Source: an uncultured Bacilli bacterium (GTDB lineage Bacteria; Bacillota_I; Bacilli_A; RF39; UBA660). From it: a stretch of DNA of 64,000 bases. Position 1 is the stretch's first letter; each line of letters starts with the position of its first letter. The notes beneath the pieces are model-generated. The model did no database searches. It was not told the origin of the DNA and saw only the letters and a list, made by a program, of their open reading frames with translations. The DNA lies in assembly GCA_944371995.1 (NCBI GenBank), contig CALVYD010000007.1, positions 100 through 64,099 of the forward strand, given 5' to 3'. The position numbers and the translations under genes are program-made. Below, one piece after another: positions 9,888 through 16,455 of the stretch.

Positions 9888-10703
9888 TCATAAAACTAAT
9901 GCATTAGCCAGTTCAACAAATATTTCTACTGATAATTGTTCTGCTCTAACATTTAAGTCATAACCATATTGACTTAACACCGAACTAATAATAGACAAAT
10001 CATATTTTTTTAAATTATTACGAAGATTTTTTCTCTTAAATTGAAAACTATCTCTTACAATCTGAAAAAACAAATTTTGATCTTTCAAAGGCAACAACTC
10101 ATCTTTTTTTGTAAAAGAAATAACTACACTATCAACATTAGGTTCAGGAACAAATTCCTTCCTAGATACAAAAAACTCTTTTTTAATATGATAAAAATAT
10201 GATAGAAAAACACTAATAGAACCATATTCCCTAGTACCAGGCTGAGCAGAGAAACGATCTCCTACTTCTTTTTGTACCATCATACATACTTTTTTAAAAT
10301 TTAAATTACTTTCTATAATCTTCATCATAATAGGTGTCGTAATATAATAAGGTACATTACTAATAAAATAAAGATTCTGATAAGAAAAAAGAGAAATATC
10401 ATCTGCAATATTACTTTTTAAAAAATCTTGAAACAATATCTTTACATTAGAAAAGTATTCTAATTTTTTAAATAATTCTTCCTGTAAATCTTCATCAATT
10501 TCATATGCTAATACTTGTTTTGATCGTAATGCTAACTCTTTAGTTAAAATAGCTCCTCCAGGACCAACTTCAATAACTAAATCGTCTTTAGTTAAATCAC
10601 ATACATCAGCAATTCTTTCAACAACTACGTGTCGCTTTAAAAAATTTTGACCAAACTTCTTTTTAAAATTTACATTATATTTTTCCACAGACTTCACCAA
10701 CAA
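9888..10703 (-). CDS. rsmA: 16S rRNA (adenine1518/1519-N6)-dimethyltransferase
   Basis: FKKKFGQNFL..., VIEVGPGGAILT, SNVPYYITTPI. TTG/GTG start region. Confidence 0.9.
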   Translation of the reverse strand: MLVKSVEKYNVNFKKKFGQNFLKRHVVVERIADVCDLTKDDLVIEVGPGGAILTKELALRSKQVLAYEIDEDLQEELFKKLEYFSNVKILFQDFLKSNIADDISLFSYQNLYFISNVPYYITTPIMMKIIESNLNFKKVCMMVQKEVGDRFSAQPGTREYGSISVFLSYFYHIKKEFFVSRKEFVPEPNVDSVVISFTKKDELLPLKDQNLFFQIVRDSFQFKRKNLRNNLKKYDLSIISSVLSQYGYDLNVRAEQLSVEIFVELANALVL

Positions 10704-10945
10704 GATTATATCAAAACAACAACGTTAAGTAAACCGAATTTACTTTTCTCCTTACCTTAGAAATTTATTACTTTGCTAACAAAATAATTAAAATATAACT
10801 GCTAGAGTCATCCTTCTATTTTATTTATTTCCTACGTTAATTCTGTCATTTTAAAATCATAGATAATAAACATCATTTTATTATGATAAGCATTAAATAA
10901 AGTTTATTTACTATAAATTTCTTTTACCAAAAAAAACGAAATAAT

Positions 10946-11572
10946 TTAAGCTTTCCGTTTATCTTTATTAGAAATCATCCTACGTACACGTACCACTTCT
11001 GACAATATCAAATATAAAAATGGTATTACAATACATAAAATCCAACCAAAATATGTAGATAAAAAATGTCTTATATATCCTAACATAGGAATTCTAAAAA
11101 TAACTTTACCATAAATATCTTTTTCATTTACTAAAGAAGAATCAGCAACATTATTATGATCTCCTTTAGTACGAAACAATAAACTTCCATCTGAAGACTT
11201 TTCAATACCAATAACACGATGAGTAATAACTTTACCCTTATAATAAGATTCTGTTGCAAGAAAACTAATAATATCACCTTGTTTTATATTTTCAGGTTCA
11301 ATCCTTTGTATAATAATTGCATCCTCTACATTAATTGTTGGAACCATACTAGGACTAACTATAATATAAGCATCAAATAAAGGAGTTTTATTTTCTCCAG
11401 AAGAAATATTATATAATAAATCTACAAAATAAAAAAAGAAAAGAAGAAATATTAACACTAATAAAATTAGTATAACATATAAGACTACTTTAGTAATGAA
11501 ATGAAAAAAGAACTGAACAATTTCTAAAAGAGATACAACATCATCATGATTTGTATCAAAGTACTCTTTCAT
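10946..11572 (-). CDS. sipW: SipW-type (ER/archaeal-type, Ser/His) signal peptidase I
   Basis: N- and C-terminal TM segments. VSPSMVPTINVEDAIIIQR (Ser box), VITHRVIGI (His box), FRTKGDHNNVADS. Confidence 0.8.
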   Translation of the reverse strand: MKEYFDTNHDDVVSLLEIVQFFFHFITKVVLYVILILLVLIFLLFFFYFVDLLYNISSGENKTPLFDAYIIVSPSMVPTINVEDAIIIQRIEPENIKQGDIISFLATESYYKGKVITHRVIGIEKSSDGSLLFRTKGDHNNVADSSLVNEKDIYGKVIFRIPMLGYIRHFLSTYFGWILCIVIPFLYLILSEVVRVRRMISNKDKRKA

Positions 11573-11661
11573 ACCAAAGCCTCCTTATCTTTAATATCAT
11601 AATAACACGCATAGAAAAAAAAAACTATAATTTACCATAAAAAAAAGAGAAATTGACATCT

Positions 11662-12285
11662 CTAAATAGCTTTTGCTGTAACATTTAATTTAACTTGAAA
11701 CTCTCTACTAACAGAATCAATAATAGTATCCTGATCTACCCAAATACGTAATCTAAATTCCTGACTCAATTCCATATCCTCGTCCGTAGTATTAGAAAAA
11801 GTACCTGAATAAATTACCATATCACCTGTTTTAGTTCCAAGAAAACTATCCTCTATTAAAGGCGTAAAAGACTGAGGGATAGTAGTAATTGGTGTATCTA
11901 CAAAATCATTACCATCTTTTTTTTGTAAATATATTTTTACATCTTGATTATCTAAAACAGGTGCATTACTATTTATTTTTTCTAAAGAAATTTCATAATT
12001 TATAGTAGTTTTTCTCGATAAAATGGTATGAACAGAGAAATCATAAACATTTCCATCACCAGTTAAATTTTTACCTGTATCATCAGAAATTGGCATAGCA
12101 TTAACAATTGAAATAGAGTTTGAATTATTAGAAAGCTGCAAAGAAATTGTACCCGTAGAAATTCCATTTTCCTTACTACTTAAAACAGTGTGAAAAGCTG
12201 CATAAGATATTCCTACAAATGCAATAATTAATATAGCAATACCCAGTATAGATAAAATAATTTGCTTTGATTCTGTCTTTAACAT
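11662..12285 (-). CDS. TasA/camelysin-like secreted protein, paralog 3 (SipW-type signal peptide)
   Basis: Start at ATG 12285 with GGAGGAG upstream. Signal-anchor then ...GISYAAFHTVLSSKENGISTGTISLQL (compare TasA ...GTWAAFND...ASGTLDL). Shares motifs with the two upstream paralogs: NAMPISD, YDFSV, YEISL, VKIYL, FRLRIWV, FQVKLNVTAKA. Confidence 0.6.
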   Translation of the reverse strand: MLKTESKQIILSILGIAILIIAFVGISYAAFHTVLSSKENGISTGTISLQLSNNSNSISIVNAMPISDDTGKNLTGDGNVYDFSVHTILSRKTTINYEISLEKINSNAPVLDNQDVKIYLQKKDGNDFVDTPITTIPQSFTPLIEDSFLGTKTGDMVIYSGTFSNTTDEDMELSQEFRLRIWVDQDTIIDSVSREFQVKLNVTAKAI

Positions 12286-12364
12286 AAAAAACTCCTCCAT
12301 CTATCTTACTAATATCATACCATAGAAACCTTTTTTTTCAAAATAAAAAGACTTAAATAGTCTT

Positions 12365-12961
12365 TTAATTAGCTTTACCATAAACATTAACTCTAACTTT
12401 ATAAGTAGCATTAGGATCAGTAATAACAGCTCCTTCTTTAACCCAGATTCTTAATCGATAATTATCAACTTGATTCGCAGATAGTGAAAATTTACTTAAA
12501 ACCATAGATTTAGCAGGACTACCAAGTTCTGTTTTTTTCTTAATAGGCGTAAATTCTTTAGGTTCATCAACTTTGGAATAGGTACCACTAGTTTGCTTTT
12601 CTAAATAAACCATAATATCACTATCAGATATCGTTGAAGAATCATCTTTCACCAAAGCAATCTCATAATCAACCGTAGTGTCACTATCAATATCAGAAGA
12701 TACAGAAAAATCAAAATAACTACCTTCAGCTCTGTTCTCCATCGCAACATCATTAGCAACTGGAGTTATAGAGTTCAACTGTAACCCGTTAACTTCTGTT
12801 TTATAATTCATAGAAACTGTACCTGTTTTAACAACCTCTTTTACATTTTTTTCTTGTTCCTTAAAAAACATAGTAAAAGCAACAGCAATAACCGCAATTA
12901 AAACAATGCTTAATAATACTAAGAAAATAACAATATTTTTTGTTTTACTTTTTGATTCCAT
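12365..12961 (-). CDS. TasA/camelysin-like secreted protein, paralog 2
   Basis: GGAGGAG RBS. TM then ...VAFTMF...KTGTVSMNYK, YFDFSVSS, DYEIALV, IMVYLEK, YRLRIWV, YKVRVNVYGKA. Only 8 nt from paralog 1. Confidence 0.6.
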   Translation of the reverse strand: MESKSKTKNIVIFLVLLSIVLIAVIAVAFTMFFKEQEKNVKEVVKTGTVSMNYKTEVNGLQLNSITPVANDVAMENRAEGSYFDFSVSSDIDSDTTVDYEIALVKDDSSTISDSDIMVYLEKQTSGTYSKVDEPKEFTPIKKKTELGSPAKSMVLSKFSLSANQVDNYRLRIWVKEGAVITDPNATYKVRVNVYGKAN

Positions 12962-12969
12962 AACTCCTC

Positions 12970-13563
12970 CTAATTAATTACCTTAACATATAGTAAAATA
13001 CCAAAACTACGTACTTCTTCAGTAATAGGGTAAGTATCTGCAAGCCACATACGTAATCTAAAGTTTTGAATCTCTCCCTTTTTAAGTACTCCAGAATATA
13101 TCTTTTTACCTGCAGGATTACTAACAGCAACTTTTAAATCACGATAGGTAGGAACAACTTGATCAAATCCTTCTACCGGTTGATCTGTATCTGCATTAGT
13201 TAAATATAATTTTACATAATTCGTAGCAATTTCTGTTGAAACACCAATATTTTTAGCATAAATTTCATAACGAACTTCATCCATACCTTCCATATTAGAA
13301 GAAATACTAAACTCACTATATCCGTGTTTTGTTTGATTTGGTGTAAATGATAATTGCTTTCCAATCGCATCCGTAACTGGCATAGAACTATCCATCATCA
13401 ATAAAGAAGAATCATCAGAACTAGAAAAGATAATAGTAGCATTCTTAGCTGCTGCATCATTACTATGGAAGTATAAAAATAAACACCCTATAAAAACACA
13501 AATAGATAATAGTATTAAAGATATAGAAATAAAAAGTGTTGAACTACCATGTTTTTTTATCAT
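12970..13563 (-). CDS. TasA/camelysin-like secreted protein, paralog 1
   Basis: TM anchor, then ...SSMPVTDAIGK, YSEFSISS, RYEIYAK, VKLYLTN, IYSGVL, FRLRMWL, FGILLYVKV. Same motif order as paralogs 2 and 3. Confidence 0.55.
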   Translation of the reverse strand: MIKKHGSSTLFISISLILLSICVFIGCLFLYFHSNDAAAKNATIIFSSSDDSSLLMMDSSMPVTDAIGKQLSFTPNQTKHGYSEFSISSNMEGMDEVRYEIYAKNIGVSTEIATNYVKLYLTNADTDQPVEGFDQVVPTYRDLKVAVSNPAGKKIYSGVLKKGEIQNFRLRMWLADTYPITEEVRSFGILLYVKVIN

Positions 13564-13619
13564 TAAATACAACCCCTATCTTATATATAAGAATACACTA
13601 TTTTATTACTTTTTGCAAA

Positions 13620-14375
13620 CTAATCTATATGAAAAATCTTTTTTGCATTACGAGTTGTAATTGAAGACACTTCATCGACACTAATATTTTTACAATTAGC
13701 TATAGCTGCTGCGATATATGGAATATATTTAGAACTATTTTTCTTACCACGAAAAGGCTCAGGAGTTAAATAAGGACTATCTGTCTCTAATACTATCTTA
13801 TCTAAAGGAAGTTGTGCTACTACTTCTCTTAATTTACTATTTTTAAAAGTAATAACACCACCGATTCCTAAAGTAAATCCCTGTTGAATATATTCTTTAG
13901 CAGTCTCCAAACTTCCGCTAAAACAATGAATAACTCCAGAAACAGAATATTTTTTTAACAATTGAATAGTATCAAAAGTAGCATCTCTACTATGTATAAC
14001 AACAGGAAGATCTAACTTTTCAGCTAACTGTAATTGCGCTTCAAATAATTGAAGTTGTAAATTTTTATTTTCTTTTCCATAATAATAATCAAGACCAATC
14101 TCTCCAAAGCCAACTATCTTAGAGGTAGAGACAAGTTGTTGTTCTAACAACGATAAATCCTCTTCTGTAATACTATCTGCTTCTGATGGATGATAACCTA
14201 TCGTTAAAAATACATCAGAATAGCACTCTGCATATTTCAAAGACTCTAAAATATCTTTCTTCGTACAACCAGAAATAATAATAGGACTAACACCTACTGC
14301 TCTATTTTCAGTAAGCACTTGATCTATATTTTCATAATCATCTACCGACAAATGACAATGTGTATCAATAAACAT
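13620..14375 (-). CDS. tatD: TatD-family metal-dependent DNase/hydrolase
   Basis: MFIDTHCHL..., GEIGLDYYY, VVIHSRDA, GVIHCFSG, ETDSPYLTP. Start trimmed to ATG 14375 (GGAGG upstream). Confidence 0.9.
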   Translation of the reverse strand: MFIDTHCHLSVDDYENIDQVLTENRAVGVSPIIISGCTKKDILESLKYAECYSDVFLTIGYHPSEADSITEEDLSLLEQQLVSTSKIVGFGEIGLDYYYGKENKNLQLQLFEAQLQLAEKLDLPVVIHSRDATFDTIQLLKKYSVSGVIHCFSGSLETAKEYIQQGFTLGIGGVITFKNSKLREVVAQLPLDKIVLETDSPYLTPEPFRGKKNSSKYIPYIAAAIANCKNISVDEVSSITTRNAKKIFHID

Positions 14376-14404
14376 AATAATACCTCCAAAATAAAAATAC
14401 CATA

Positions 14405-14578
14405 TTAATGATATTTTTTCCACTGACAAAACTTCATTCTAAAATAAATAATCGTAATAACTACTAAATAAATAGCATCCATCAAATTTTGAGTCACACC
14501 CAAATATAAAATAATAAAAAGACTGCCAAAAACATATAAAACATCTAAATAAAAAGACTGCGCTATATTTCTTGCCAT
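14405..14578 (-). CDS. possible 57-aa small membrane protein
   Basis: Below the track cutoff. ATG 14578 preceded by AAAGGA. MARNIAQSFYLDVLYVFGSLFIILYLGVTQNLMDAIYLVVITIIYFRMKFCQWKKYH, two hydrophobic spans. Confidence 0.3.
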   Translation of the reverse strand: MARNIAQSFYLDVLYVFGSLFIILYLGVTQNLMDAIYLVVITIIYFRMKFCQWKKYH

Positions 14579-14677: not shown

Positions 14678-16213
14678 TTACATTTCTTTAAAAAAATCAT
14701 CTCTATTAATCCTTTGAAATAAAGGAGTTGGAGAAAGTAATTGATACTGATTAGATGAATTATAATGAATGCTATTATCATGAATATTAAGTTGTCTCAT
14801 AATCTCTTTACTAGTACTAGGCATAAATGGTTCCAAATAAAGACCACATATACGAATAGATTCTAATAAATGATAAATAACACTCTGTAAACGATCTCTT
14901 TGAGATTCATCTTTTGCTAAAATCCAAGGAGTAGTCTCATCAATATATTTATTAGTAAAACGTAAAACATTAAATATTTCTGTAATAGCATCACTAATTT
15001 GTAAATCATTCATATGTGCATCAACTAAAGACTCTAATGCCTCAAGCTTATTTTCTAACTCTTTATCAATATCCTCTCTGCTATCATTACCAGTAACTAT
15101 ACCATCAAAATATTTGTTTCCCATGGAAATAGAGCGTTGTACTAAGTTTCCTAACACATTAGCAAGTTCTCCATTAATATGGTCAATTAATAAATCATAA
15201 GTAATATTACCATCACTAGCAAATGGAATTTCATGAAGTAAATAATAACGAACAGCATCTACTCCAAAAGCTTCTACCAATTCATCAGCATAAATAACAT
15301 TTCCTTTAGATTTACTCATCTTATCATTATTCATAAGTAACCAAGGATGTCCAAATATTTTCTTTGGTAAAGGAAGTCCTAAAGACCATAAAAAGCAAGG
15401 CCAGTAAATCGAATGAAAACGAACAATGTCTTTACCAATTACTTGCAAATCAGCAGGCCATAACTTTTTAAACTCCCCTGTTACTTCATCTACATCATAT
15501 CCAATATTAGTAATATAATTAGTCAAAGCATCAAGCCATACATAAATCACATGATTAGAATCAAAATCCACTGGAATTCCCCATTTAAATGAAGTACGAG
15601 AAACACATAAATCTTGAAGACCAGGTTTAATAAAATTATTTAACATTTCATTACGTCTTGCCGCTGGTTGTATAAAATCAGGATTAGATTCAATAAAATC
15701 CTCTAATTTCTTTTGATATTTACTTAATTTAAAGAAATAAGCTTCCTCTTTTGCTTCTTTTACTTCGCGCCCGCAATCAGGACACTTACCATCAACGAGC
15801 TGAGACTCCGTCCAAAAAGATTCACAAGGAGTACAATAAAGACCTGTATATTCACCTTTATAAATATCCCCTTGGTCATACATCTTCTTAAAAATATGTT
15901 GAACAATTCTTTTATGATGAGGATCAGTAGTTCTAACAAACTTATCATAACTAGTATCCATCAAATCCCAAATACGTTTAACTTCACCAGCCTGTTTATC
16001 CACAAAATCCTGTGGACTAACTCCTGCAGCAATCGCTTTATCCTCTATTTTTTGACCATGTTCATCAGTACCAGTTTGAAAATAAACATCATATCCTTTA
16101 AATCTTTTATATCTAGCAATCGCATCAGCTAAAACAATTTCATAAGTATTACCTATATGTGGCTTTCCAGAAGTATACGCAATTGCCGTTGTAATATAAA
16201 ATTTTTCTTTCAT
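14678..16213 (-). CDS. metG: methionine--tRNA ligase (short form)
   Basis: MKEKFYITTAIAYTSGKPHIGN (HIGH), CxxC...CPDC zinc knuckle, KMSKS. Start trimmed to ATG 16213 (AGGAGGG upstream). Confidence 0.93.
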   Translation of the reverse strand: MKEKFYITTAIAYTSGKPHIGNTYEIVLADAIARYKRFKGYDVYFQTGTDEHGQKIEDKAIAAGVSPQDFVDKQAGEVKRIWDLMDTSYDKFVRTTDPHHKRIVQHIFKKMYDQGDIYKGEYTGLYCTPCESFWTESQLVDGKCPDCGREVKEAKEEAYFFKLSKYQKKLEDFIESNPDFIQPAARRNEMLNNFIKPGLQDLCVSRTSFKWGIPVDFDSNHVIYVWLDALTNYITNIGYDVDEVTGEFKKLWPADLQVIGKDIVRFHSIYWPCFLWSLGLPLPKKIFGHPWLLMNNDKMSKSKGNVIYADELVEAFGVDAVRYYLLHEIPFASDGNITYDLLIDHINGELANVLGNLVQRSISMGNKYFDGIVTGNDSREDIDKELENKLEALESLVDAHMNDLQISDAITEIFNVLRFTNKYIDETTPWILAKDESQRDRLQSVIYHLLESIRICGLYLEPFMPSTSKEIMRQLNIHDNSIHYNSSNQYQLLSPTPLFQRINRDDFFKEM

Positions 16214-16224
16214 TCTATCCCTCC

Positions 16225-16455
16225 TAAATAAAAAAACTATTATAAACATAAGGACGAAAATTCGCGGTACCACCTTATTTTATAATAGTAAATATTATAC
16301 ACTCAAATAGTTAACGCCTATCTACGATTACACCTACATATCGATGCAACAGTTCAGAAGCCATATCTTATAAAAAGCTTATTTCCTTTTTCACCATCCG
16401 GAATCTCTAAACTAAACTATATTTTTATAAGACTCTTCCTCATCACATTCAACAG
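16225..16455 (-). promoter_or_regulatory. T-box leader (tRNA-sensing riboswitch) upstream of metG
   Basis: Minus strand shows a GA/K-turn (GTGATGAGGAAGAGT), an AGAGA box, CCGGATGGTGAAA, an ATG triplet in the candidate specifier region (AAGATATGGC), the F-box-like GGCGTTAAC, and the T-box AAGGTGGTACCGCGAA about 40 nt before the RBS. Confidence 0.7.

Follow-up and report, generated by a model that had tools for sequence, protein, structure and literature searches.

A candidate surface-assembly cassette of a SipW-like signal peptidase and three exported paralogs at a conserved chromosomal site in uncultured gut Bacilli

We detected a block of four minus-strand genes, oriented in one direction between tatD and rsmA (10946-13572), in the window, a 64,000-nucleotide stretch of DNA from an uncultured Bacilli bacterium. 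The genes encode three paralogous proteins (P1, P2 and P3) and a signal peptidase. We suggest, with the balance of probability standing about level, that they form a clade-conserved surface-assembly cassette, in which a dedicated SipW-like peptidase works with three Sec-exported beta-sandwich paralogs, P3 providing the polymer and P1 and P2 its anchors. SipW-dependent donor-strand fibres are already known from Bacillus (TasA) and Clostridium (BsaA); new here would be the combination of such a front end for export, cleavage and strand donation with a different beta-sandwich body, in a family whose clusters number over 5,000 and which has no database name.

The features are collected in Table 1. 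The ORF coordinates agree with the co-directional, tightly spaced arrangement reported in the initial annotation, and the listed ORFs reproduce its intergenic gaps (8, 64 and 89 nt) exactly. The likelier start of P1 is ATG 13563, which is preceded by a GGGG ribosome-binding site and gives a protein of 197 aa, and the P3 start at ATG 12285 is backed by homologs and a GGAGGAG ribosome-binding site. AGGAGG at 12971-12966, in the ribosome-binding site region of P2, overlaps the stop of P1; from this arrangement we propose translational coupling of P2 to P1 and co-transcription of the two genes.

Table 1. Features of the tatD-rsmA region, in window coordinates
Feature	Coordinates	Strand	Description or basis
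tatD	14429..13620	-	flanking gene
promoter-like element, tatD-P1 gap	13590..13618	-	TTGCAA (13618-13613), 17 nt, TATTCT (13595-13590); read from sequence
P1	13572..12970	-	family paralog, 200 aa as listed; ORF and BLASTP paralogy
P2	12961..12365	-	family paralog, 198 aa; ORF and BLASTP paralogy
terminator-like hairpin and T-run	12340..12366	-	directly after P2 stop; single-sequence folds
P3 promoter	12314..12341	-	TTGAAA, 16 nt, TG-n-TATGAT (extended -10); 10/12 matches, with TG
P3	12300..11662	-	212-aa ORF; 207 aa from ATG 12285 (11662..12285)
terminator-like hairpin and T-run	11638..11663	-	after P3 stop; 19/21 species
extended -10-like element	11599..11607	-	TGTTATTAT, upstream of peptidase gene, then AAGGAGG
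signal peptidase	11572..10946	-	ER/archaeal-type (SipW-like, S26B), 208 aa
rsmA	10703..9888	-	flanking gene

The four genes had been read as a single operon; the P3 promoter and the terminator-like hairpins after P2 and P3 speak against this, and the cassette looks like three transcription units. The element in the tatD-P1 gap may act as a promoter, and the AATAGTGTATTCT block recurs 3' of tatD genus-wide, with TTGAAA/TTGCAA upstream where the compared stretch extends far enough. A hairpin followed by a T-run was found after P2 in 19 of the 21 species (-5.9 to -12.7 kcal/mol), with stem sequences that differ between species (AAGACT, GGC, GTGAC). TGnTA(T/A)(G/A/T)AT lies 21-30 nt upstream of the P3 start in 19/21 species, and the hairpin after P3 has five consensus pairs, each of which at least one species preserves through changes in both partners. 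For P3, a promoter of its own and terminator hairpins on either side would suit a major subunit made in large amounts. Upstream of the peptidase gene, (C/A)(G/A)TG(T/A/G/C)TAT(T/C)AT is present in all 21 species, and the TGTTATTAT element is a putative promoter for this gene.

All 20 congeners carry the cassette at the tatD-rsmA site, and this synteny was found in 61 of the 78 related gut Bacilli loci. Judged by synteny, the cassette is ancestral and its fixed chromosomal site is common to the clade. The block was initially described as inserted, in an unusual context; because its G+C (0.24-0.32) is the same as that of the flanks and it is syntenic across the clade, it is "inserted" only by comparison with Bacillus.

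The TIGR02228 profile matched the peptidase with 106.2 bits (cut-off 51.85) over model positions 6-156 of 158. The motifs SPSM (73), THRV (117) and GDHN (137) were identified, and the alignment to human SEC11C (E 9.7e-8) and SEC11A places S75 in SxSM, H118 in HRV and D138 in GDxN, whose SEC11 counterparts are the catalytic residues. The predicted catalytic residues of the peptidase are Ser75, His118 and Asp138, and not Ser/Lys as in LepB. The ER/archaeal-type Ser/His assignment made in the initial annotation is thus upheld, and the transmembrane segments it placed at both ends correspond to hydrophobic stretches around residues 20-55 and 170-197. The cytoplasmic N-terminal tail, MK(E/Q)YFDTNHDDVVS, is conserved. 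The score with the Bacillus SipW equivalog NF046067 was 92.2 bits, under the cut-off of 190, and by this measure the enzyme is SipW-like and no SipW ortholog. It is not the sole signal peptidase of the organism: the genome also encodes a LepB-type enzyme (TIGR02227, 148 bits, G000:C24:115-552), adjoining an rplS-like gene, and at least four further archaeal-type signal peptidases. Since a LepB-type housekeeping enzyme coexists with it, the cassette peptidase is accessory, and very probably it is a dedicated peptidase with cognate exported substrates.

The paralogy of P1-P3, recognised at the outset, lies far beyond chance in BLASTP (P2/P3, E=1e-22; P1/P3, 1e-10; P1/P2, 2e-9). The motif set attributed to all three proteins is shared in part: YEI, YL and RLRxW are invariant across them, and AAF and TGT(I/V)S are present in P3, partly in P2 and absent from P1, which reads LYF...KNATIIF at these positions. 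Pfam and NCBIfam scans assigned no family to P1-P3, none of ten family representatives checked for names had one, and the small proteins at other SipW-type loci had no NCBIfam name. The family is large (5,434 clusters at 50% identity) and often fused to adhesin-like repeats. Its best-conserved part is the hydrophobic segment, and the signal peptide and first strands are among the better-conserved regions; profiles built from 3 and from 87 sequences, searched against the PDB, yielded nothing beyond noise or weak matches driven by the hydrophobic helix.

The family cleavage motif, derived from 84 representatives, has G at -5 (80), S/T/A at -3 (82), Y/F at -2 (74), A at -1 (79) and F/Y at +2 (72), and matches T-W-A↓A-F of TasA (↓, cut). 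Within the genus only P3 retains an intact site, S-Y-A↓A-F, which is kept in 21/21 species and at which P3 is probably cleaved. The predicted signal peptide of P3 is TasA-like and 29 residues long, and the mature protein of 178 aa is predicted to have a 12-residue flexible N-terminal arm followed by a beta-sandwich. At the same position P1 reads C-L-F-L↓Y-F, with L at -3 in 19 and L at -1 in 20 of the 21 species, a small residue at -3 or -1 in none of them and an invariant Cys at -4. P2 reads A/S-F-(V/F/M/L/I)↓x-F-F, with a bulky -1 residue in 17/21 species and T or S in the other four. The -1/-3 rule is general for type I and Sec11-type peptidases. Because P1 and P2 lack the small -1 residue, they are probably uncleaved membrane anchors (predicted signal-anchors), a reading that we favour with some reserve; an unusual specificity of the cassette peptidase could still allow their cleavage. 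Three fibre-subunit candidates had been counted in the initial annotation; the absence of a small -1 residue from P1 in 21/21 and from P2 in 17/21 species restricts the cleavable site to P3. In the 78 related loci, 213 members have the canonical site and 44 do not, and 35 of the 65 multi-member cassettes contain at least one non-cleavable member.

P1 was also considered as a lipoprotein modified at the invariant Cys, and this was rejected: the preceding residue is G in only 14/21 species, otherwise F, L, V or I, and hydrophobic residues follow the Cys. An alternative downstream site in P1, DAAA↓K, is missing from the orthologs, so it is no conserved feature. The SipW-cognate signal peptide profile TIGR04088, a short model of low sensitivity, gave no match in P1-P3 at E<=1 and weak matches in 6/87 family members (best E 0.07).

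Membership of P1-P3 in the TasA/camelysin family, as proposed initially, was not borne out. PF12389 gave no match in P1-P3 at E<=1, none elsewhere in the genome, weak matches in 3/87 family members (best E 0.0048) and, in 200 genomes of the class, N-terminal partial matches only (profile positions 3-78). The TasA equivalog profile matched 6/87 family members weakly, and in the P1-P3 scan NF046066 stayed at 13.5 bits (cut-off 450), over N-terminal residues 12-78 only. Since PF12389 gave only N-terminal partial matches, TasA relatives were collected with a TasA query 99% identical to B. subtilis TasA. When the family was compared with 35 TasA-family proteins by hhalign, only P3 9-70 aligned, with TasA 2-62 (prob 61%, E 7.9e-5), a match that is partly driven by the hydrophobic signal peptide. 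This stretch spans the signal peptide followed by three elements of TasA defined in PMC9674648, namely its donor strand (28-38), hinge (39-47) and swap strand (48-61). Together with the S-Y-A↓A-F site, this alignment sustains the resemblance to the TasA signal and first strand noted at the start for the N-terminus. The cleavage site of TasA and its P2' Phe are taken from PMC10269814 and from the assignment of residues 28-38 in PMC9674648.

The model of mature P3 has pLDDT 90 and pTM 0.85, with residues 1-12 below 50. Foldseek was run against the PDB with two monomer models, the full-length protein (helix included) and the mature domain. The best matches were generic beta-sandwiches (best E 7e-4, TM <=0.38), and the chaperone-usher pilins FimG, EcpA and CS20 were among the weak ones for the mature domain. 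TasA chains, whose jelly-roll is represented by PDB 5OF1, 5OF2 and 8AUR, were missing from the best 50 PDB matches of either model, those of the mature domain also contained no AbpA or thread pilin, and neither model had a close structural neighbour. The conservation of the P3 N-terminal arm is 0.48 vs 0.43 in the remaining mature protein, only a slight excess.

We suggest the following mechanism. A strong extended -10 promoter of its own would drive P3, and the P3 signal peptide would be cut at the S-Y-A↓A-F site, freeing the 12-residue arm. By donating this arm as a strand to the beta-sandwich of the adjacent subunit, P3 would build a polymer in the style of TasA and BsaA. P1 and P2, having lost the small -1 residue needed by type I signal peptidases, would remain membrane-held as N-in/C-out signal-anchored paralogs and would serve as base, nucleator or terminator of the P3 polymer, tethering it to the cell. 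P3 is likely the major exported or polymerising subunit. Its donor-strand polymerisation, at which the disordered 12-residue arm hints indirectly, is a tentative proposal, falling somewhat short of an even chance, and the anchoring role of P1 and P2 is likewise putative.

It is also conceivable, though rather unlikely, that P1-P3 are non-polymerising envelope proteins, monomers at the surface such as lectin- or adhesin-like beta-sandwiches or structural proteins of the envelope, with P1 and P2 membrane-anchored, P3 released to the wall or medium, and the peptidase processing P3 only, without a role in assembly. The best Foldseek neighbours, among them carbohydrate-binding modules, PA14 and lectin domains, are consistent with this, TasA homology was undetected past the N-terminus by hhalign, and the adhesin-type repeats of long family members fit simple surface display. 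However, ordinary secreted proteins would seldom keep an accessory peptidase beside them clade-wide where a LepB-type enzyme is available, the long members would be left without means of retention once cleaved, and the signal peptide and first strands rank among the better-conserved parts of the family, as ordinary signal peptides do not. Another possibility, in line with the initial annotation, that all three proteins are divergent true TasA/camelysin (PF12389) members with the same jelly-roll fold, forming a three-component TasA fibre, appears improbable. The empty PF12389 scans of P1-P3 and the genome, the confinement of matches across the class to positions 3-78, the absence of TasA from the best 50 Foldseek matches of the pLDDT-90 model and the missing cleavage site in P1 and P2 argue against it, whereas the N-terminal hhalign match and the weak TasA equivalog, TIGR04088 and PF12389 matches speak for it. 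Iterative HMM searches connect very divergent BsaA/TasA-like proteins (PMC11580942), so a remote whole-domain link of the family to TasA is possible.

A spore-surface system, made in sporulation and giving a coat-associated layer or spore appendage, is quite improbable. Sporulation genes abound nearby (yabG, spoVG, yabP, yabQ and a SpoVT-like gene), and TasA was first described as spore-coat associated; these neighbours nevertheless belong to the usual origin-proximal housekeeping string and form no sporulation operon. Moreover, the three conserved promoter-like elements look like the vegetative sigma-A type (TTGAAA -35, TGnTATGAT extended -10), and we take them to be unlike the sigma-E/K/F/G consensus sequences. 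Highly improbable is the possibility that P1-P3 are type IV pilin-like subunits, retaining the N-terminal hydrophobic helix as the core of a helical filament that the genome's own type IV pilus machinery would assemble; a PilB-like ATPase and a prepilin peptidase are encoded on contig C11. The hydrophobic segment is the most conserved part of the family, Pfam Pilin_N weakly matched 4/87 family members, and the PDB profile search gave weak matches to archaeal type IV pilins (6nav, E 0.026; 8tib, 8fjs, 6w8x), but these matches have E >=0.026 and rest on hydrophobic helices. We found neither the prepilin site Gly↓Phe/Met-Thr-Leu-x-Glu nor the archaeal (K/R)G↓ site in P1-P3 or in the family consensus ...SKQILLSVLGVAILVVAVVGVSFAAF; no Gly stands ahead of the hydrophobic stretch, the small -3/-1 site comes after the helix and not before it, and the peptidase conserved next to these genes is of the S26B signal peptidase type and not an A24 prepilin peptidase.

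The proposed P3 polymer with P1/P2 anchors resembles tapA-sipW-tasA of B. subtilis (PMC9674648) in the ER/archaeal-type signal peptidase gene beside exported substrates, in the signal peptide end (small-aromatic-Ala↓Ala-Phe, here in P3), in the roughly 60 N-terminal residues of P3 that align with TasA, and in a minor accessory component beside the major subunit. It differs from that system in having a beta-sandwich body without sequence or Foldseek similarity to TasA/PF12389, no TapA, accessory components that are paralogs of the major subunit minus the cleavage site, a peptidase under the SipW equivalog cut-off, and three transcription units at the fixed tatD-rsmA site. In the sipW-bsaA-bsaB-bsaC operon of Clostridium perfringens (PMC11580942), SipW likewise adjoins several paralogous TasA-like matrix proteins, and both the occurrence of multiple paralogs per operon and possible heteropolymers are noted there. 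The "N-terminal disordered loop" of BsaA is its proposed donor strand, and the disordered arm of the P3 model parallels it. In the model proposed for BsaA (PMC11580942), a subunit still tethered by its signal peptide takes up the growing oligomer's disordered N-terminal arm, and the SipW cut comes only afterwards; a non-cleavable paralog would therefore fit as a permanent anchor. BsaA-type fibres are locked by an intermolecular isopeptide bond that an Asn-Glu-Lys triad forms. Unlike the C. perfringens operon, the cassette contains no von Willebrand A protein.

The subunits of archaeal bundling pili (AbpA) and Sulfolobus threads are processed by type I (Sec11-like) signal peptidase. According to PMC9245690 and PMC9715654, these pili and threads are donor-strand-linked surface filaments. 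They belong to another domain of life, and no sequence or Foldseek link between them and P1-P3 was found. In chaperone-usher pili, a terminator or anchor such as PapH, and in sortase pili, the basal pilin, is a paralog with an altered terminus that ends growth and fixes the fibre. The likeness to these pili is by analogy only, in a paralog of the major subunit as the proposed anchor; the cassette has no usher, chaperone or sortase, and the anchor here would be the uncleaved signal peptide. If the proposal is true, the cassette would be a natural case of a fibre anchored by a paralog minus the signal-peptidase site.

The long family members (n=54, 320-1743 aa), whose sampled representatives contain Big_2, Flg_new, LRR_5 or cadherin-like repeats, have a small -1 residue in 54/54 N-terminal stretches (A in 52, S in one); a C-terminal LPXTG-like motif and a second hydrophobic segment were found in none of the 54. 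Since the cleaved long members lack both, they could be retained on the cell only via the N-terminal family module. A broader and more speculative reading, which we consider doubtful at present, is that the family supplies the module for polymerisation and attachment in a form of surface display that uncultured gut Bacilli run without sortase: a Sec11-type cut would expose the N-terminal strand for insertion into the following subunit, the membrane base would consist of uncleaved paralogs (P1 and P2; elsewhere the ~180-aa TS(M/I)LWY type), and large adhesins with the same N-terminal module would be plugged into the filament. If true, this would explain how these bacteria retain fibres and very large LPXTG-less adhesins on the surface. 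That many family members in other genomes are located far from any such peptidase gene speaks against the cassette proposal. The family occurs mainly in uncultured gut Bacilli with small genomes, whose MAG records are often labelled "Tenericutes" or "Mycoplasma".

P1, P2 and P3, the three ~200-aa proteins encoded beside the SipW-like signal peptidase gene, are true paralogs by BLASTP (P2/P3 E=1e-22; P1/P3 1e-10; P1/P2 2e-9), sharing the invariant aligned positions F-S, Y-E-I, Y-L and R-L-R-x-W. The four minus-strand ORFs have exactly the coordinates and gaps (8, 64 and 89 nt) initially annotated, and that observation of three paralogs with a peptidase holds as a whole. The P3 homologs are 207 aa long and GGAGGAG is placed 7 nt upstream of the ATG at 12285, so this ATG is probably the real P3 start. 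Pfam and NCBIfam searches assigned no family to P1-P3. When a family profile built from 39 relatives was run against a set of 1.84 billion representative proteins, 5,434 clusters were detected at E<=1e-3 (2,288 at E<=1e-10), and none of the ten representatives checked is named. A SipW-type peptidase with cognate putative fibre-like substrates is a system of known kind; new here are the nameless family as building material and, conserved among its paralogs, a predicted split between cleavable and non-cleavable ones.

We tallied the segment following the hydrophobic core in 84 family representatives and detected G at -5 (80/84), S/T/A at -3 (82/84), Y/F at -2 (74/84), A at -1 (79/84) and F/Y at +2 (72/84). 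Judged by sequence, the segment forms a textbook site for signal peptidases (-3/-1 rule), and its shape is that of T-W-A|A-F in TasA. The N-termini were then aligned for the cassettes (P1-P2-P3 and the peptidase) of the window genome and all of its congeners (20 species). The P3 site, S-Y-A|A/T, is present in 21/21 species. In P2, -3 is still A/S and -2 still F, but -1 is bulky (V, F, M, L or I) in 17/21, and the P1 site is C-L-F-L|Y-F, a small residue occurring at -1 or -3 in 0/21. No conserved alternative cleavage site was found in P1 or P2 in this alignment; a lipobox around the invariant Cys of P1 was rejected, as it is not conserved. The -3/-1 rule, which is a general one, predicts that P1 and P2 stay in the membrane as N-in/C-out proteins and that P3 is released. 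The pattern extends beyond this genus: 78 related-species loci hold 213 members with a canonical site and 44 without, and at least one non-canonical member, often of a ~180-aa T-S-(M/I)-L|W-Y type standing last, is found in 35 of the 65 cassettes with several members.

Reading of the minus strand and the 21-species comparison suggested that the block is not the single operon proposed in the initial annotation, since promoter-like elements and terminator-like hairpins would divide it into three units. P1 and P2 are coupled, with AGGAGG overlapping the P1 stop, and GGAGG stands between the P3 promoter and P3. A strong promoter of its own and flanking terminators would be expected of a highly expressed structural protein, with P3 as the putative major subunit.

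Features of the cassette region in the window, in the order of the minus-strand gene row
Feature	Coordinates	Strand	Position or conservation
metG	16273..14678	-	first gene of the row
tatD	14429..13620	-	between metG and P1
Promoter-like element TTGCAA-17-TATTCT		-	tatD-P1 gap; conserved
P1	13572..12970	-	between tatD and P2
P2	12961..12365	-	between P1 and P3
Hairpin and T-run		-	after P2; 19/21 species, stem sequences differ
P3 promoter TTGAAA-16-TGGTATGAT		-	between P2 hairpin and P3; extended -10 in 19/21 species
P3 (listed ORF, 212 aa)	12300..11662	-	between P2 and peptidase
Second hairpin and T-run		-	after P3; compensatory changes in 5/5 consensus pairs
Element TGTTATTAT and AAGGAGG		-	upstream of peptidase gene; conserved
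Signal peptidase	11572..10946	-	between P3 and rsmA
rsmA	10703..9888	-	between peptidase and yabG
yabG, veg, spoVG, yabP, yabQ		-	beyond rsmA, in this order

The peptidase-rsmA spacer (10704-10945) is 242 nt long in the window and only ~50 nt in most congeners, where a conserved TG(T/A)(T/G)ATA(T/G)(T/A) element is located immediately upstream of rsmA. The extra spacer sequence is shared by the window genome and three others (loci L045, L051 and L053).

The peptidase passes the model for archaeal/ER-type signal peptidase I, TIGR02228 (106 bits, cut-off 51.85), and scores 92 bits against the Bacillus SipW equivalog, below its cut-off of 190. Alignment to human SEC11C and SEC11A via SxSM, HRV and GDxN assigns Ser75, His118 and Asp138, and both ends carry hydrophobic segments. 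The concern that it might be the sole general signal peptidase of the organism is answered by a LepB-type peptidase elsewhere in the genome (contig C24, 115-552; 148 bits) and at least four further archaeal-type genes on contigs C22 and C24; the cassette enzyme is, by this gene content, not the general one. Its N-terminal cytoplasmic tail of ~25 residues, MK(E/Q)YFDTNHDDVVS... (11500-11572, minus strand), is near-invariant in 21 species, and its conservation far exceeds that of the membrane segment, suggesting contact with a partner or a regulatory contact.

A second and larger locus beyond the window (C22:2678-28248; L004, L007, L008 and L010) carries four SipW-like genes, two of which (C22:2678-3199 and C22:18192-18776) apparently have no SxSM catalytic serine motif, and one of whose products, 418 aa long, has a long additional C-terminal domain. 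The locus also encodes several nameless ~190-310-aa proteins with signal-anchor N-termini (e.g., ...SSYAKYRRQ, ...STYTSYESE) and one 2,694-aa protein; comparison of the small proteins with NCBIfam gave no name. At C24:12908-16545 (L006; likewise outside the window), a 387-aa protein starts with a long, strongly hydrophobic part and ends in an archaeal-type signal peptidase domain (89 bits); on its flanks are small exported proteins whose N-termini read ...GYALLSQ and ...SSYALLSS.

The relation to TasA was analyzed by hhalign of 87 family members against 35 aligned TasA-family proteins, collected with a TasA query whose best match was B. subtilis TasA (99% identity). There was a single match, P3 9-70 to TasA 2-62 (probability 61%, E 7.9e-5), and the bodies of the two families did not align with each other. 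According to the cryo-EM study of TasA fibres, TasA 2-62 comprises the signal peptide, donor strand (28-38), hinge (39-47) and monomer self-complementing strand (48-61) (PMC9674648). A PF12389 profile search of the whole genome gave no match. The AlphaFold model of mature P3 (pLDDT 90, pTM 0.85) is a nine-strand beta-sandwich after 12 disordered residues. Foldseek against PDB found nothing close to it (best E 7e-4, TM <=0.38); the matches were carbohydrate-binding modules, viral jelly-rolls and chaperone-usher pilins (FimG, EcpA, CS20), and TasA was absent from the top 50 for this and the full-length model. The initial interpretation thus survives in its SipW-type peptidase and TasA-like front end, and loses PF12389 membership, the one operon and the insertion.

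With likeness limited to the front end, it is unlikely that P1-P3 are genuine, highly divergent TasA members. A role at the spore surface is less probable still, as the cassette promoters look vegetative. Type IV-pilin-like subunits, to which weak PDB matches to archaeal pilins and machinery encoded on contig C11 might point, are very improbable, given that the prepilin motif is absent and the adjoining peptidase is of the wrong type. That P1-P3 are simple, non-polymerising surface proteins is a serious, though minority, possibility. We favor, at roughly even odds, a P3-type system that would work TasA-like at the export and donor-strand end, yet lies outside PF12389.

In this putative TasA-like system, P1, P2 and P3 would be exported by Sec and the peptidase would cleave P3 at Ala34|Ala35 (numbering of the listed 212-aa ORF). 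The freed arm (AFHTVLSSKENG) could enter another subunit as donor strand, a step known from TasA and proposed for BsaA, and an uncuttable paralog could serve as permanent membrane anchor or terminator; these steps are inferred. In the BsaA model, the signal peptide holds subunits until the growing oligomer docks, with SipW cleavage afterwards (PMC11580942). Many family members are proteins of 320-1743 aa that begin with the ~200-residue module, and of 10 such long members scanned, 9 contain Big_2, Listeria-Bacteroides repeats, BspA-type LRR or cadherin-like domains. Among the best 150 matches, all 54 long members have a small -1 residue in the printed N-terminal stretch (A in 52, S in one), and an LPXTG-like motif or second hydrophobic segment was found in 0/54. 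Cut long members could therefore be held to the cell only by the N-terminal module, a pattern that would give indirect support to the donor-strand scheme. Many long members (P0122, P0156, P0174, P0189, P0228, P0238, P0242) share the C-terminal motif ...(V/I)RP(V/A)V(F/Y/H)L(K/N/S/V)S...G(G/D/T/S)G(T/S/A)...(D/N/K/S)P(Y/F)..., possibly a further conserved module at that end of the proteins; there was one faint DUF6273 match.

The order tatD-P1-P2-P3-peptidase-rsmA is conserved in 20/20 congeners (over two contigs in one), with identities to the window of 81-99% for metG, 70-91% for the peptidase and 53-95% for P1-P3. In species-representative genomes, the peptidase adjoins 1-8 family genes at 61 of 78 loci, nearly always between metG-tatD and rsmA-yabG; the remaining loci are mostly contig ends or one MAG's dispersed copies. 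The hosts are uncultured gut Bacilli, MAGs labelled 'Tenericutes' or 'Mycoplasma', Candidatus Faecimonas, Candidatus Onthousia and Clostridium sp. CAG:451. Because of this synteny the cassette is read as ancestral to the clade, not as a recent insertion; the G+C of the block is no different from that of its flanks. Nor are tatD and rsmA contiguous in Bacillus, as had been assumed, because yabE and rnmV lie between yabD (tatD) and ksgA (rsmA) on the B. subtilis map.

The tatD-side cassette of a different genus within the same family has four paralogs of the protein family and is broken by a 384-aa ORF on the opposite strand (L028:6511-7665, plus strand, contig C2 of genome G024), possibly the gene of a mobile element; three more small membrane ORFs lie downstream of its peptidase gene. 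G024 has 26 family matches, many being N-termini of ~490-660-aa open frames. The rabbit-gut MAG 'Lapin-012__bin84' contains at least 12 dispersed copies on separate contigs (L081, L090-L092, L094-L096, L098, L100, L103, L107, L111), all with a near-identical N-terminus, GISFAAFT, and none close to a peptidase gene, which indicates expansion of the family in this MAG.
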